Assembly: GCA_964367095.1 (NCBI GenBank)
Contig: CAYIXE010000002.1
Span: forward strand, 1 to 51,698
Direction of reading: 5' to 3'
From: an uncultured Gammaproteobacteria bacterium
GTDB lineage: Bacteria; Patescibacteriota; Microgenomatia; UBA10105; UBA927
Length of the DNA stretch: 51,698 nt
Shown here: piece after piece, positions 1-48,572 of the stretch
How the letters are laid out: every line of letters starts with the position of its first letter
Numbering within the stretch: position 1 is the first letter of the stretch
Position numbers and translations under genes: made by a program
The notes under the pieces: generated by a model
Database searches by the model: none
The model's input: only the letters and a program-made list of their open reading frames with translations
Told to the model about the DNA's origin: nothing

Positions 1-3000
1 CCCGTCAACCCTTGCGAAAGTGACACCCCTCCGCCACACTCTTTTTGAAGCGCTTCCAACTCCGCCTTTTTCTGTATTTCTGCGCCTTGAGGAATCTCTA
101 CGCCAAATATTGCACGCATGATTCGCCCTGCAAATGCACGAGTCTTTATAAGCGCACCCTCAAAAGATATTTGGTTTTGCGTTGCATTCTCCCTTGTCCT
201 AATCTGATCAAAACCAAAGCGACTATTTGATTCAGAAAGCCCAAATGGCCCATTGAGAATAGAATTTTGTTGATCTATGTTTTTTCCCCAATTTCCAAAA
301 ACTTCATCAGTCGTAAGATGGAAATATCCTATGATTTGCGAAGCATCATATCCTCGTAATTGCGCAAACGGAATAATAAGTTCAGAAAAATTTCCGTTTG
401 CGCTCATACGATACAGTGCCAATTTTCCCCCTTCTGTATCCCAATCAAATAGCTTTGCTTCTTTGAGTGTCTGTAATATAAATATCAACCCTTGAGCTCC
501 TTTCCAATAAAATATTTCCTCAAATTTCTTCGTTGACAATCCAACCTTATCAGCAATCAAATACTGCAAAGTAGTAACCACGAGCTCTTGAGATTCGTCA
601 TGATTGACACGTGCAGTTCTATTTCCTATAAGAAATATGTGTAATTTTTCATGAAGCATTTCGACAGCCGCCCATACAGGATCATCAATTATACTTTGTG
701 CGATAATAAGCCCTCCGCCTGTAGCGCTCCCCCGCGCTCCCACTGGTAATGATCGAACAATCGTTATGTCGTTTACTGGATCTGAAGGATAATCAATCGC
801 ATACTGATATCCAGGCAACAACTGATACATCAATGATGCAAGTGTAGAAACAAATTGAGCGGGCAGACCACTTTTCTGCACCTCTTTTGAAATAATCGCA
901 CCTATGACTCGTTTTTTTTCTGCAACAGTGCCAAATGGGAAATTAAATTGTACTTGAGATGAAACGAAATCCGGTATAGTCGTGAATTGATCACGTTCCA
1001 CGACAGCTTGTTCTCTATTAAATGCATCACTTGCGGCAATCGCGCTTTCTTCATGAACAGGCATATAATCTCCAAGATCAGCGCCTTTTTGAAAAGATTC
1101 CCAAATATCTTTTTGTTTGGTATCCAATGCTAATATGTCTCTCACTACGTGGCGCGCTATCCGTTTTCGTTCATAAATGCTCAAGTTTTCGTATACGTTA
1201 AGCTCGTTCATTATTTGATCCTGAAGTGACGCATCAATCTGAATGAAACTCCCTTCAGCTCGTTGAATTCGATCTATCAATATCTTTGTAGATTTGGGTA
1301 TTTCATCGCGTATTGCTAATCGAACTTGCTGTCCAACCCACTGTTTCCTCACCCCTTGCCATAATTCACCCATCCTCTCCCAAAACTGCATCTGGATCGG
1401 TTCGGCAAAATGCGGTATCCCCTGATCTCCCCACCATTTTTTCACTTTACCCGCCGTAACCTTGGCGAAGGCTTGGGCTCTTGTCGTTTTCTCCATCCAC
1501 AAAAGTGCCCACGGATATCGATCAAGATTTAGATTTTTAATTACTCTCCCAAATGCGGTACAGCCAGAAGTTGCTCCTAAAACATCTCCGTCTTGAGAAA
1601 AATCAGCAGCATACACGCGTGGTATACTAAAAAGTGGTGTGGGCCTACTCAAGTGAGGCGACCAGTCTGTCAAACCGGTGCGCGGGGGTGCAATTCCCCC
1701 TAGGTCCACACTACTACCCACACTACTACGTACTATATTGACATCTATAGCATTAGATGCTATATTTGCTGTTGACAGACTGGTTGCAACCTCATTTGAG
1801 GGTAGCACCGTCAAAGAACTTCCGAAAGGAAGTTTTTTGTTGGAATTTTGCTGCGAAAGTGACACCCCTCCCCCGCACTCTTTTTGAAGCGCTTCCAACT
1901 CCGCCTTTTTCTGTATTTCTTTCTCATTCATCGTCGTAGGTGCGCCAAATATCGCGCGCATGACCGAATCGACAAATGCACGAATTGGAATTGATTGAGA
2001 TTTTGTCTGTATTAAAGATTCTGGAGAAAGGGTTTTTTGTATGCGTTCTTTGAGGATTTTTTCCACCACCGAAGAAATGAGGTCAACGGACTCTTGGTCG
2101 TTTAACTGCGGTCCCGCACGGTTGGATTCGGCCATGCGTTTATATGCATCCTCAACAATTGGCGCCAACGCTGCCCGCAGCTCATCCACAGAAAGTGTCG
2201 GGTTGAGACGCACGTATGCTGGATTGTTGCGCACGGCTTTCGTAATTTGCTGGGTTAATTGTTGCAGTTCGGATCTCCCGCCTACAGAAAGTTTTAACGC
2301 TGGCAACTCTCCATCTGATTCATATTCAAGCGAGTCGGAATGCACATCCAAATAATTCACGCGAACCTCCATATTTTTTTGAAGCTCAAACGCTCCTGTA
2401 ACTCTTTTCCATTTCCCTTCCGGCGTCAAAATTTCTATGAGGTCAGTGCCGTGACGCATGGTGAGTCCGGAAAATTCAACCGTCATGCCGGGGGTTACGG
2501 TAATTTTGTCCGTTCCCTGGTATATTCCCTCATCACCAAACATGGCGCTGCTTCTGGCAAATTCTTTAAATACTTTCCATCCTCCAAACACATCGACTAC
2601 CTCATTTACATCTCCAAGGATTGCCTGTTCCCAAAGTTGTTTTCCTTTTTCGGGCCCCACTCGTCTGATCAGCTCAGGGTAAAACACATCCTGCATTAAC
2701 CGAGCCGCATCCGCATAATCAGAAGATGCTGTTTGCGATAGTGCATCTTCAAAACTCATGTTCCCGTACCTTACCATTGCTTCTGTATGAGCAAGCGTCG
2801 TAAAGCCTTCTACTACATTAGTAGCTAGACGAGGAGTAAAAATCGGAGGGAAACCCAATCCTATATTATGAACACTGTCACGCCGAACTAAATGCCAGTA
2901 TTCATGAATGGCTATAGCAAGAGCGAGGGTAGACTGTTCTTTTGATTGAAGTATCTCTGCAGCCATCCAGTTCGCTCGTGCTTGACCTAAAGACCGCCCC

Positions 3001-48572: not shown

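Follow-up and report, generated by a model that had tools for sequence, protein, structure and literature searches.

Bacterial proteins of up to 85,804 amino acids (aa) have been reported (West-Roberts 2023, bioRxiv 10.1101/2023.11.21.568195), as has a protein of 147,155 aa, and a corpus published in 2026 contains 3,650 proteins of at least 10,000 aa (10.64898/2026.06.07.730766). In giant proteins, divergent SecA_DEAD and preprotein-binding domains are typically found beside transmembrane (TM) helices, and self-export was suggested for these proteins (10.1101/2023.11.21.568195). A class from the Omnitrophota is TM-rich and multi-enzyme, and both self-export and processing were proposed (10.1101/2023.11.21.568195). 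Among the Candidate Phyla Radiation (CPR), Candidatus Peregrinibacteria are noted for proteins of > 5,000 aa (PMC11573180), and the predator Vampirococcus lugosii has large surface proteins of 1,392-4,163 aa (PMC8080830). In 'Chlorochromatium aggregatum', giant epibiont proteins are transferred to the partner (10.64898/2026.03.19.712371). Here we describe a 51,698-nt stretch of DNA ("the window"; positions 1 to 51,698 of contig CAYIXE010000002.1, assembly GCA_964367095.1) from a member of the Patescibacteria. Its minus strand is occupied by a giant gene with an anchor, a putative motor and an exchangeable enzymatic payload.

A six-frame stop count showed that one minus-strand frame (codon first bases at pos mod 3 = 2) is free of stops for 48,713 nt, from just after a TAA at 48711-48713 down to window position 1. 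Its translation has 16,236 sense codons, no stops and an ordinary amino-acid composition. The five other frames contain 600, 893, 790, 1,133 and 1,358 stops, and the longest open stretch in them is 864 nt. An alternative genetic code was rejected, as the frame has no in-frame TGA, TAG or TAA needing explanation. A preliminary description of the window had claimed a minus-strand open reading frame (ORF) of more than 48.5 kb in this frame, open at the window edge and free of stops from 48572 to 3, and this is borne out. It was also right about why the ORF is missing from the ORF list: the frame runs off the window and its stop is outside, about 5.2 kb beyond the edge.

The window is the reverse complement of the first 51,698 bases of a parent contig (ENA ERZ1292617, Hain_H52_01um_R3_167; 61,452 bp, 22x coverage) from a short-read metagenome of Hainich groundwater (well H52, 0.1-um fraction). 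The neighbouring gene of 190 aa is identical in sequence there. Extension to the left, proposed earlier as the way to find the stop, succeeded on this contig: the gene was called there from a GTG at 48515 with a product of 17,894 aa that ends inside the contig, which places the stop ~5.17 kb to the left of the window. The whole gene is thus ~53.7 kb long (~17,900 codons), and the window contains ~90% of it. Candidate starts are TTG 48572, TTG 48533 and GTG 48515; residues are numbered here from codon 48710. Of the features that had been placed at the 5' end, a promoter-like site, a predicted TM anchor and the upstream in-frame TAA were all found. The promoter-like site TTGATC-18-TGTTATAAT has 10 of 12 consensus matches and an extended -10, and the signal-anchor FIQILPLVLFVVFSIGTFI has a mean Kyte-Doolittle score of 2.43. 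Since a relative (L013) lies on a 996-kb long-read contig, the genome is taken to be ~1 Mb, of which the giant gene makes up ~5%.

The ORF is coding throughout and under purifying selection. In every 3-kb segment the GC content falls from the first to the second to the third codon position, and the first position is purine-rich. The ratio of nonsynonymous to synonymous substitution rates (dN/dS) is 0.22-0.30 in three blocks homologous to contigs L007 and L008, described below; in a fourth block it was not computable because dS was saturated. The Pfam domains of the protein all fall in frame, and three of them (FHA, intein and SGNH esterase) score above the curated cut-offs. The same strain was also assembled from long reads (L010, a 363.8-kb contig), and this contig and the window are collinear over 20.6 kb, including the first 17.6 kb of the giant gene. 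The two differ by one substitution and 38 one-base indels. Of the indels, 35 lie in homopolymers, and the indels explain the fragmented calls of the giant gene, and of rho, on the long-read contig. The order rho, LysM/M23 peptidase, giant gene is the same in the relatives L011 and L013, and the Rho and LysM/M23 synteny is conserved in three relatives. A mobile-element or phage origin was rejected, the locus being chromosomal and syntenic in relatives. The earlier view that this is a real protein-coding gene is thereby supported by coding signature, selection, in-frame domains, independent assemblies and synteny, and we regard a single real giant gene, rather than an artefact, as very nearly certain.

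A giant ORF could also result from a contig that is chimeric or collapsed at repeats, or from the artificial joining of several genes. The assembly is from a short-read metagenome with co-occurring related strains, and it has dispersed in-frame repeats of 69, 106 and 191 nt with 91-97% identity (7060/8848; 13/1852/5656; 36/5679). Dispersed repeats had been noticed in the preliminary description, the lengths given there, 91 and 119 bp, being approximate. The gene is moreover in several ORFs in two relatives, L011 (5.5x coverage; ORFs of 273, 1,386, 780 and > 3,323 aa) and L012 (2.5x). The L011 breaks, however, are +1/-1 frameshifts at A-runs (8440-8560; 10840-10930) after which homology resumes in the shifted frame, and in one frameshift pair, 80 nt apart, the frame is restored; L012 is likewise broken by A-run frameshifts. 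True gene fission in L011 was rejected on these grounds and on its low coverage, and the breaks are errors or very recent changes or slippage, not ancient fission. The long-read contig of the same strain differs over the first 17.6 kb essentially by homopolymer indels. A mis-join would give 48.7 kb without a stop only if every piece were already open, in-frame coding sequence. Finally, the repeats are restricted to the last ~9 kb, so that only the order or number of the cassettes encoded there is at risk of mis-assembly. The only tandem match that Tandem Repeats Finder gave in the giant gene is one of 27 nt in two copies (40776-40802). An assembly artefact cannot account for the open frame itself, and the artefact explanation as a whole is poorly supported and highly improbable.

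Equally poorly supported, and if anything more improbable still, is a decaying relic, a once-functional giant gene drifting to a pseudogene. Some motifs are degenerate (a J-like stretch lacks HPD, a GGDEF-like strand reads SANDF, and a Fic-like motif lacks its final Arg) and relatives have frameshifts. Against this stand the absence of any stop in 16,236 codons, the dN/dS values given above, and the intact catalytic motifs of SGNH esterase, kinases and intein.

Table 1. Features of the giant gene and its product in the window. Residues are those of the giant protein.
Feature	Residues	Window positions	Strand	Basis or remark
Giant ORF, in-window part		1..48572	-	Open from 48710 to 1; six-frame stop count, translation, parent-contig gene call
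Promoter-like site TTGATC-18-TGTTATAAT		48603..48632	-	Consensus match only
Signal-anchor helix	~54-76	48483..48551	-	Hydrophobicity scan
Cys-rich, Pro/Thr-linker-rich putative ectodomain	77-1800	43311..48482	-	Composition
Most conserved core	2098-3269	38904..42419	-	Coiled-coil-like lead-in and P-loop motor
Ordered superfamily 2 (SF2)/SecA-type motifs		39852..41510	-	Motif pattern
Cluster of ~5-6 hydrophobic TM-like helices	3913-4554	35049..36974	-	Kyte-Doolittle scan
PRTase-CE-like region	4850-5046	33573..34163	-	E 7e-5, 23.2 bits vs Pfam cut-off 27
FHA domain	5146-5221	33048..33275	-	Pfam E 1.7e-21
PP2C-like phosphatase region	5528-5635	31806..32129	-	Just below Pfam cut-off
Protein-kinase-like domain 1	6347-6483	29262..29672	-	YAVKI, HGDLRSINI, DGFG
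Predicted class-1 intein, canonical, 377 aa	7916-8292	23835..24965	-	Pfam, NCBIfam, motif blocks
Strong single TM-like helix	~10279-10303	17802..17876	-	Kyte-Doolittle scan
SGNH/GDSL esterase	10839-11031	15618..16196	-	Pfam E 3.2e-15; GDS, GHGG, GVND, DVVH
Two HExxH (zincin-like) motifs	11202 and 11785	13344..15107	-	Motif count
Protein-kinase-like domain 2	12655-12786	10353..10748	-	HGDWKLDN, TDFGGG; E 1.4e-7
Cassette array with seven linker copies		57..10997	-	DNA repeats, self-BLAST, linker hidden Markov model (HMM)
Linker copy	12572	10848-10997	-	Linker HMM
Linker copy	12875	9885-10088	-	Linker HMM
Linker copy	13243	8823-8984	-	Linker HMM
Linker copy	13839	7035-7196	-	Linker HMM
Linker copy	14297	5700-5822	-	Linker HMM
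Linker copy	15576	1896-1985	-	Linker HMM
Linker copy	16191	57-140	-	Linker HMM
Cassette with Fic-like motif HIKPDGNGRSSE	13502	7197..8822	-	Motif and conservation
Cassette with HEKLH motif	15733-16190	141..1514	-	93% identical in L007, 58% in L008
Block compared with L007	15733-16232			92-93% identity, dS 0.12; starts exactly at linker
Block compared with L007	11998-12591			44-45% identity, dS saturated; different relative order
Block compared with L007	13290-13736			38-42% identity, dS saturated; different relative order

The N-terminal third contains the best conserved part of the protein (Table 1). The core has 78-86% aa identity to L011 and L013, compared with 27-55% elsewhere in the protein. 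Five motifs occur in it in order, GQTGLGKS (Walker A, 2401), LLIDEFD (~2531), GTGRLQNTRP (~2714), LYGFTGT (~2785) and GSGRGTDI (~2946), which resemble SecA motif I, motif II, the PPXD exit, motif III and motif VI, respectively. The ordered five-motif pattern has one occurrence and was reached in 0 of 3000 shuffles, with a regular expression written after the sequence had been seen; GRGTD alone occurs in 1.2% of shuffles. The motifs are conserved in fragments only 32-50% identical, and the Walker A region has a weak ResIII (SF2) match (E 0.072). An SF2-type P-loop ATPase is the likely content of the core, judged by these motifs.

The core is preceded by the signal-anchor and a cysteine-rich region. 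Residues 77-~1800 consist of Pro/Thr/Val-rich linkers and helical units bearing paired cysteines, and 45 of the 61 Cys residues of the protein are found here, mostly as pairs 4-20 residues apart. Cys makes up 2.5% of residues 1-1800, as against 0.11% of the following 14,400 residues and 0.54% in the neighbouring genes, and the same split is seen in the homologues in L011, L007 and L008. The region may be read as a disulfide-stapled ectodomain. Toward its end, at residues 1540-1830, are Gly/Ala-rich, moderately hydrophobic segments. Altogether the Kyte-Doolittle scan gave ~8 hydrophobic helices, at residue 56, in the cluster at 3913-4554 and at 10284.

Relatives of the gene are few. A near-identical segment was found in the genome collection only in L007, from the metagenome-assembled genome (MAG) 'Patescibacteria group bacterium H41-bin250_1', and scans of genomes and metagenomes found only L007 (identical to L009) and L008. 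An exhaustive HMMER search of 1.84 billion representative proteins with residues 2098-3297 gave 8 matches, all of them fragments (78-1,061 aa) of the same small family. Residues 14737-16236 and 12560-14240 had no match in a word-indexed protein search, and a scan of viral contigs with the core was negative. Neither the 17,894-aa product nor the L007 protein came up in any protein search; what came up were fragments, frameshifted or truncated, and the absence of giant homologues there therefore says little. It seems that the protein collections searched lack very long proteins or do not make them reachable, and surveys made there would overlook the family.

Two of these contigs have features of their own. 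L008 (CAYHQC010000006.1, 1-12084) has one frame open over 12,084 nt on an 18.4-kb contig of 40% GC; it is filed under an 'uncultured Gammaproteobacteria' MAG but is probably a mis-binned Patescibacteria contig, and its unrelated residues include a GHKL (HATPase_c_3) domain. Downstream of the giant gene in L007 (14581-16887) are a ribbon-helix-helix/PIN (VapBC-like) pair, a nucleotidyltransferase and an ATPase, labels that are putative and unconfirmed by family search. Two large polytopic membrane proteins follow, and this stretch directly downstream in L007 has no obvious gene of immunity or secretion type.

The remainder of the protein carries a series of unrelated domains. The kinase-like regions have the catalytic Lys, HGD..N and DFG-type motifs, and PADLOC re-found only these kinases. 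The SGNH esterase retains all four catalytic blocks. HExxH occurs five times where 0.21 is expected (25-fold; 0 of 2000 shuffles reach four), once inside the intein insert and four times in separate modules. NCBIfam added only the intein, FHA and sub-threshold DnaJ-like matches, four protein chunks searched against PDB matched only the intein, FHA, SGNH and, weakly, a kinase, and relaxing Pfam to E <= 2 added nothing credible.

The preliminary description had set the protein apart from adhesins, RTX/MARTX proteins and nonribosomal peptide synthetases/polyketide synthases (NRPS/PKS), and the searches agree, with almost no internal repeats and no such Pfam domains. There are no adhesin-type tandem repeat arrays, self-BLAST giving 10 short off-diagonal matches. 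Pfam has no match to RTX repeats or a cysteine protease domain (CPD), and none of the 16 Cys after residue 1800 is in a CPD-like context. Neither Pfam nor NCBIfam matched NRPS/PKS adenylation, condensation, ketosynthase (KS), acyltransferase (AT) or carrier domains. HEAT, GT, TPR, dockerin, C39 and S8 domains were absent at Pfam E <= 2, and WD40, PKD, integrin and fibronectin domains were not detected in the protein.

Two weaker resemblances were seen among the payload. A stretch like J-domain helices I/II (DYYAILGI...; residues 10165-10247, window 17970-18218) gave the sub-threshold DnaJ matches and lies ~35-40 residues upstream of the strong TM-like helix; a J-domain at residue ~10166 was rejected, there being no HPD motif. 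The block 'DVFHKSANDFAILLPAG' (window ~11500-11600, residues ~12385-12400) resembles the GGDEF active-site strand with SANDF replacing GGDEF. It is largely conserved in the L007 homologue, where the core SANDF.I.LP.G is invariant, and has no Pfam match.

The 2,200-aa block of PRTase, FHA, PP2C and kinase regions has no counterpart in L011 or L013. The N-terminal third is collinear with the relatives, and the rest differs by replacement of whole blocks. As the intein was not detected there either, the gene combines an inherited anchor/motor third with a payload replaced block by block.

The predicted intein begins with Cys7916 (Cys1, CVTGDT), has block B TSEH at ~8001, and ends in VAHN (8289-8292) followed by Thr8293 at +1. 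It matches Pfam Intein_splicing (E 8.6e-16) and, above cut-off, TIGR01445 and TIGR01443. The sequence has all the marks of class 1: a HINT domain, a Cys/Ser start, TxxH, an HN end and Cys/Ser/Thr at +1. The predicted splice junction is ...DIPE|TSTP.... Pfam found no intein in L011, and residues 7916-8292 had no tblastn or blastp match in L011 or L013, where the flanking blocks do match; the exteins have diverged too far for the precise empty site to be aligned. By these comparisons the predicted intein is present in this strain and polymorphic among its relatives. Its central insert of ~200 aa (window 24000-24700, residues ~8010-8250) is not recognisable as a LAGLIDADG or HNH endonuclease and bears an HHEWLH motif and an N-terminal RRRRRKKK run; it matches only LPD3, below threshold. 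LPD domains in a mobile-element context are a mark of the polyvalent proteins of phages and conjugative elements, reportedly described by Iyer et al. 2017. The giant protein does not belong with them, its sole LPD3 match being sub-threshold and within the intein, its locus chromosomal, and no relative having been found in viral contigs.

The last ~3,700 residues consist of cassettes set apart by a Trp-rich linker. The linker is made of [PS]WWQRA, a basic amphipathic helix (RAFAGRIMRAIFG or similar) and EIQKKAEL or EEKKVPLPTP. An iterated linker HMM found seven copies here, four in the L007 protein and two in the L008 protein; it found none in the equivalent of the upstream 8,700 residues in L011. 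The ten short self-BLAST matches are all copies of this one linker, and the linkers coincide with the dispersed DNA repeats (<=97% identity), with cassettes between them that are mutually unrelated. A second motif (ATSGCTxFGRVIKN..YPWALLWM) follows two of the linkers. Just 3' of one occurrence of this second motif (family C, 1461-1655), with ~15 nt overlap, Rfam gives a borderline tRNA match antisense in the giant gene (window 1641-1708, plus strand; 29.4 bits vs gathering 29), which is not called by ARAGORN and is probably due to chance.

Comparison of the cassettes among relatives points to exchange. The HEKLH cassette is highly similar in L007 (Table 1), while the parts neighbouring it are 38-45% identical or unrelated to the relatives, and the L008 protein has only this last cassette in common (58%), its other 3,300 residues being unrelated. 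As aligned, at least one recombination breakpoint, the one that can be resolved, lies at a linker. A modular payload with exchange at the linker is therefore probable. In the Fic-like cassette, HIKPDGNGRSSE is within a 25-residue block nearly invariant in the 41%-identical L007 homologue. Compared with HxFx(D/E)GNGRxxR it lacks the Phe and the last Arg, and neither Pfam nor PDB profile searches gave a Fic fold. Profiles of three conserved cassettes also matched nothing in PDB.

The linkers could have another use. The chain might be a polyprotein, translated once and then cut at the linkers or elsewhere by its own zincin-like modules or a host protease, so that it would never work whole. Seven near-identical linkers (DNA <=97%) between unrelated cassettes are what such a protein might show, HExxH modules are enriched, processing was proposed for the Omnitrophota giants, and the predicted intein implies that the chain would already undergo one post-translational rearrangement. 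No cleavage site or protease specificity can be inferred, however, processing domains of the C39, S8 and CPD types were not detected by Pfam, and the linkers are confined to the last third of the protein. A polyprotein is thus rather unlikely, though it is compatible with, and not exclusive of, the membrane-anchored effector machine considered next.

The best overall explanation, narrowly favoured on the present evidence, is a membrane-anchored giant multi-enzyme protein that serves as a surface host-interaction or effector machine of an episymbiont. An inherited anchor/motor third joined to a fast-changing enzymatic payload makes the gene a strong candidate for a host-interaction determinant; for the host-interaction or effector role taken singly, the chances fall slightly short of even. 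In this mechanism the signal-anchor would hold the protein, with the disulfide-stapled, Pro/Thr-linked stalk outside the cell, and a cytoplasmic P-loop motor beside the TM cluster would help insert or export parts of its own chain. The variable payload (FHA, PP2C, kinases, SGNH esterase, zincin-like, Fic-like and others) would act on the host or partner cell. Cassettes would be exchanged by recombination at the Trp-rich amphipathic linker, which might also serve as a signal for processing or targeting. The intein would be a selfish insertion that must splice out to keep the downstream ~9,600 residues joined.

Several observations weigh against this explanation, most of them concerning the motor. 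Pfam at E <= 2 found no SecA in the giant protein, and neither phmmer nor a six-sequence motor profile matched SecA in PDB. BLASTP against a hand-entered E. coli SecA sequence gave E 0.83, with high-scoring segment pairs collinear at the motifs. A targeted SecA HMM and a global alignment of the motor did no better than shuffles, and hhalign of the motor against SecA gave P 0.12. Two AlphaFold2 models of the motor (pLDDT, the predicted local confidence, 32.7 and 40.1) were unusable because only 4-6 homologues exist, and Foldseek, which returned nothing at E <= 0.001, was uninformative. The SecA affinity of the motor is thus a lead, not a result, its homology statistically unconfirmed, and a SecA-type self-export motor is doubtful. 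Further, the TM helices come from the Kyte-Doolittle scan only, so that the topology is predicted and not established. No domain could be detected in over 85% of the residues, the C-terminal cassette order is known from one short-read contig with 69-191-nt near-identical repeats, and cassette exchange was deduced from three genomes. Finally, modules of the FHA, PP2C, kinase and Fic-like kinds usually work in the cytoplasm and require ATP, and would fit an intracellular scaffold equally well.

Such a scaffold or signalling hub would keep all but the stalk on the cytoplasmic face, where it would organise phospho-signalling and housekeeping enzymes and deliver nothing. In its favour, FHA, PP2C, kinases, a J-like stretch and a P-loop ATPase belong to the classic domain repertoire of the cytoplasm, no secretion-system genes are present in the fetched flanks, and no LPxTG or other sorting motif was found. 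However, so extreme a depletion of Cys beyond residue 1800 (0.11% vs 0.54% in neighbours) is a usual trait of proteins that are exported or translocated rather than cytoplasmic, an inferred link drawn from the exclusion of Cys that monoderm exoproteins are known for. The SGNH esterase and the four zincin-like modules come after the strong TM helix at residue 10284, and rapid block replacement and cassette exchange mark conflict or interaction proteins, not housekeeping scaffolds. The scaffold is therefore an unlikely alternative to the surface effector machine.

A bolder form of the surface effector machine is a self-exporting, reprogrammable multi-effector polyprotein. Here the motor and TM cluster would read the linkers as internal signal-like elements, and each following cassette (kinase, Fic-like, zincin and others) would be threaded across the membrane towards the host. 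The same linkers would double as in-frame recombination sites for cassette swaps between strains. This is improbable; if true, it would be a logic of secretion and diversification undescribed in any bacterial system, in a ~1-Mb genome.

Outside the giant gene the window contains a 70-aa membrane ORF, tRNA-Ala(CGC), a 23S_rRNA_IVP-family ORF, tRNA-Ala(GGC), a LysM/M23 peptidase and the end of rho. The two tRNA genes flank the 190-aa 23S_rRNA_IVP (four-helix-bundle) ORF at window 49456-50203, and the second (50132-50203) overlaps the last 21 nt of that ORF (end 50152). The sequence AAATTGAGA[AG]ATC is present in four exact copies within 177 bp (48839-49015), two per strand and 24-25 nt apart in each pair. 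It is found nowhere else in the window, and 0 of 100 shuffles reach four copies. The copies lie 210-380 nt upstream of the promoter-like site, before the divergent 70-aa membrane-protein ORF (49184-49396, plus strand). They are also present in same-population contigs (L001, L004, L006 and L010), are absent from L011 and L013, and look like an operator array.

CPR bacteria, or Patescibacteria, have ~1-Mb genomes and depend on hosts; ~5% of a genome is a large investment. With this locus, giant multidomain genes are found beyond the lineages of the Planctomycetes-Verrucomicrobia-Chlamydiae (PVC) type where they have been catalogued. It also offers handles for further work: a linker HMM for finding the family, discrete cassettes, intein splicing and a possible link to the Omnitrophota motors with SecA-type motifs.

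The closest described systems are the Omnitrophota-type giants, or 'Archaeovorins' (10.1101/2023.11.21.568195; Nielsen & Lui 2026, 10.64898/2026.06.07.730766). The preliminary description had put the gene in the extreme tail of sizes, which is overstated in view of the 85,804- and 147,155-aa proteins and the 3,650 of at least 10,000 aa; for its lineage the gene is a large one. It had also found the domain combination foreign to any described giant-protein family. That holds for adhesins, RTX and NRPS, but the layout resembles that of described TM-rich multi-enzyme giants, many of which have divergent SecA-type motors. As in these, the protein is very long, largely non-repetitive and mostly unannotatable, and belongs to an ultra-small, host-dependent bacterium. 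It likewise has several predicted TM regions, numerous enzymatic domains unrelated to one another, among them some of the Ser/Thr phosphatase and esterase types, and a putative P-loop motor with SecA-type motifs beside TM helices. It differs in its phylum, Patescibacteria, and in size, its 17,894 aa making it 'large' (>=10,000 aa) and not 'giant' (>=30,000 aa) by the classes of West-Roberts 2023. Pfam finds no SecA_DEAD, HEAT, GT, TPR, dockerin, C39 or S8 here, and the core has no detectable relative beyond its own small family. Neither an intein nor a linker-delimited cassette array turned up in term searches of the West-Roberts and Nielsen & Lui papers.

Other systems share single features. 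MARTX toxins also string unrelated effector-type modules together in one chain, with a module content that varies between strains through recombination. The present protein, however, lacks both RTX/glycine-rich repeats and a cysteine protease domain, the region contains hardly any Cys, a predicted N-terminal membrane anchor stands in place of type I secretion, and the linkers are conserved Trp-rich helices, not Leu-containing loops. Polymorphic toxins (CdiA, Rhs, MafB) likewise place variable modules after a short conserved junction motif, have their recombination breakpoints there and include proteins with HINT-type domains. They have one C-terminal toxin where there are many serial cassettes here, without RHS/YD or haemagglutinin repeats and with no immunity gene identified, and the HINT domain here is a predicted full canonical intein with a +1 nucleophile. 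The surface proteins of CPR/DPANN episymbionts such as Vampirococcus lugosii are also from a reduced-genome lineage, membrane-localised and presumed to contact the host; the giant protein is ~4 times longer and is enzymatic rather than built of adhesion domains. The intein shares blocks A, B and G with the DnaB mini-inteins (PDB 1mi8, 4o1r) and resembles them in sequence (E 5e-9). Those occupy a conserved site of an essential enzyme, whereas this one, with an insert matched only weakly by LPD3, is in a hypervariable giant at a site not conserved in relatives. New with respect to all these systems are the lineage and the outlay, one gene taking up ~5% of a ~1-Mb genome, together with an orphan conserved core, a linker-delimited array of exchangeable cassettes and a predicted intein in a hypervariable giant gene.

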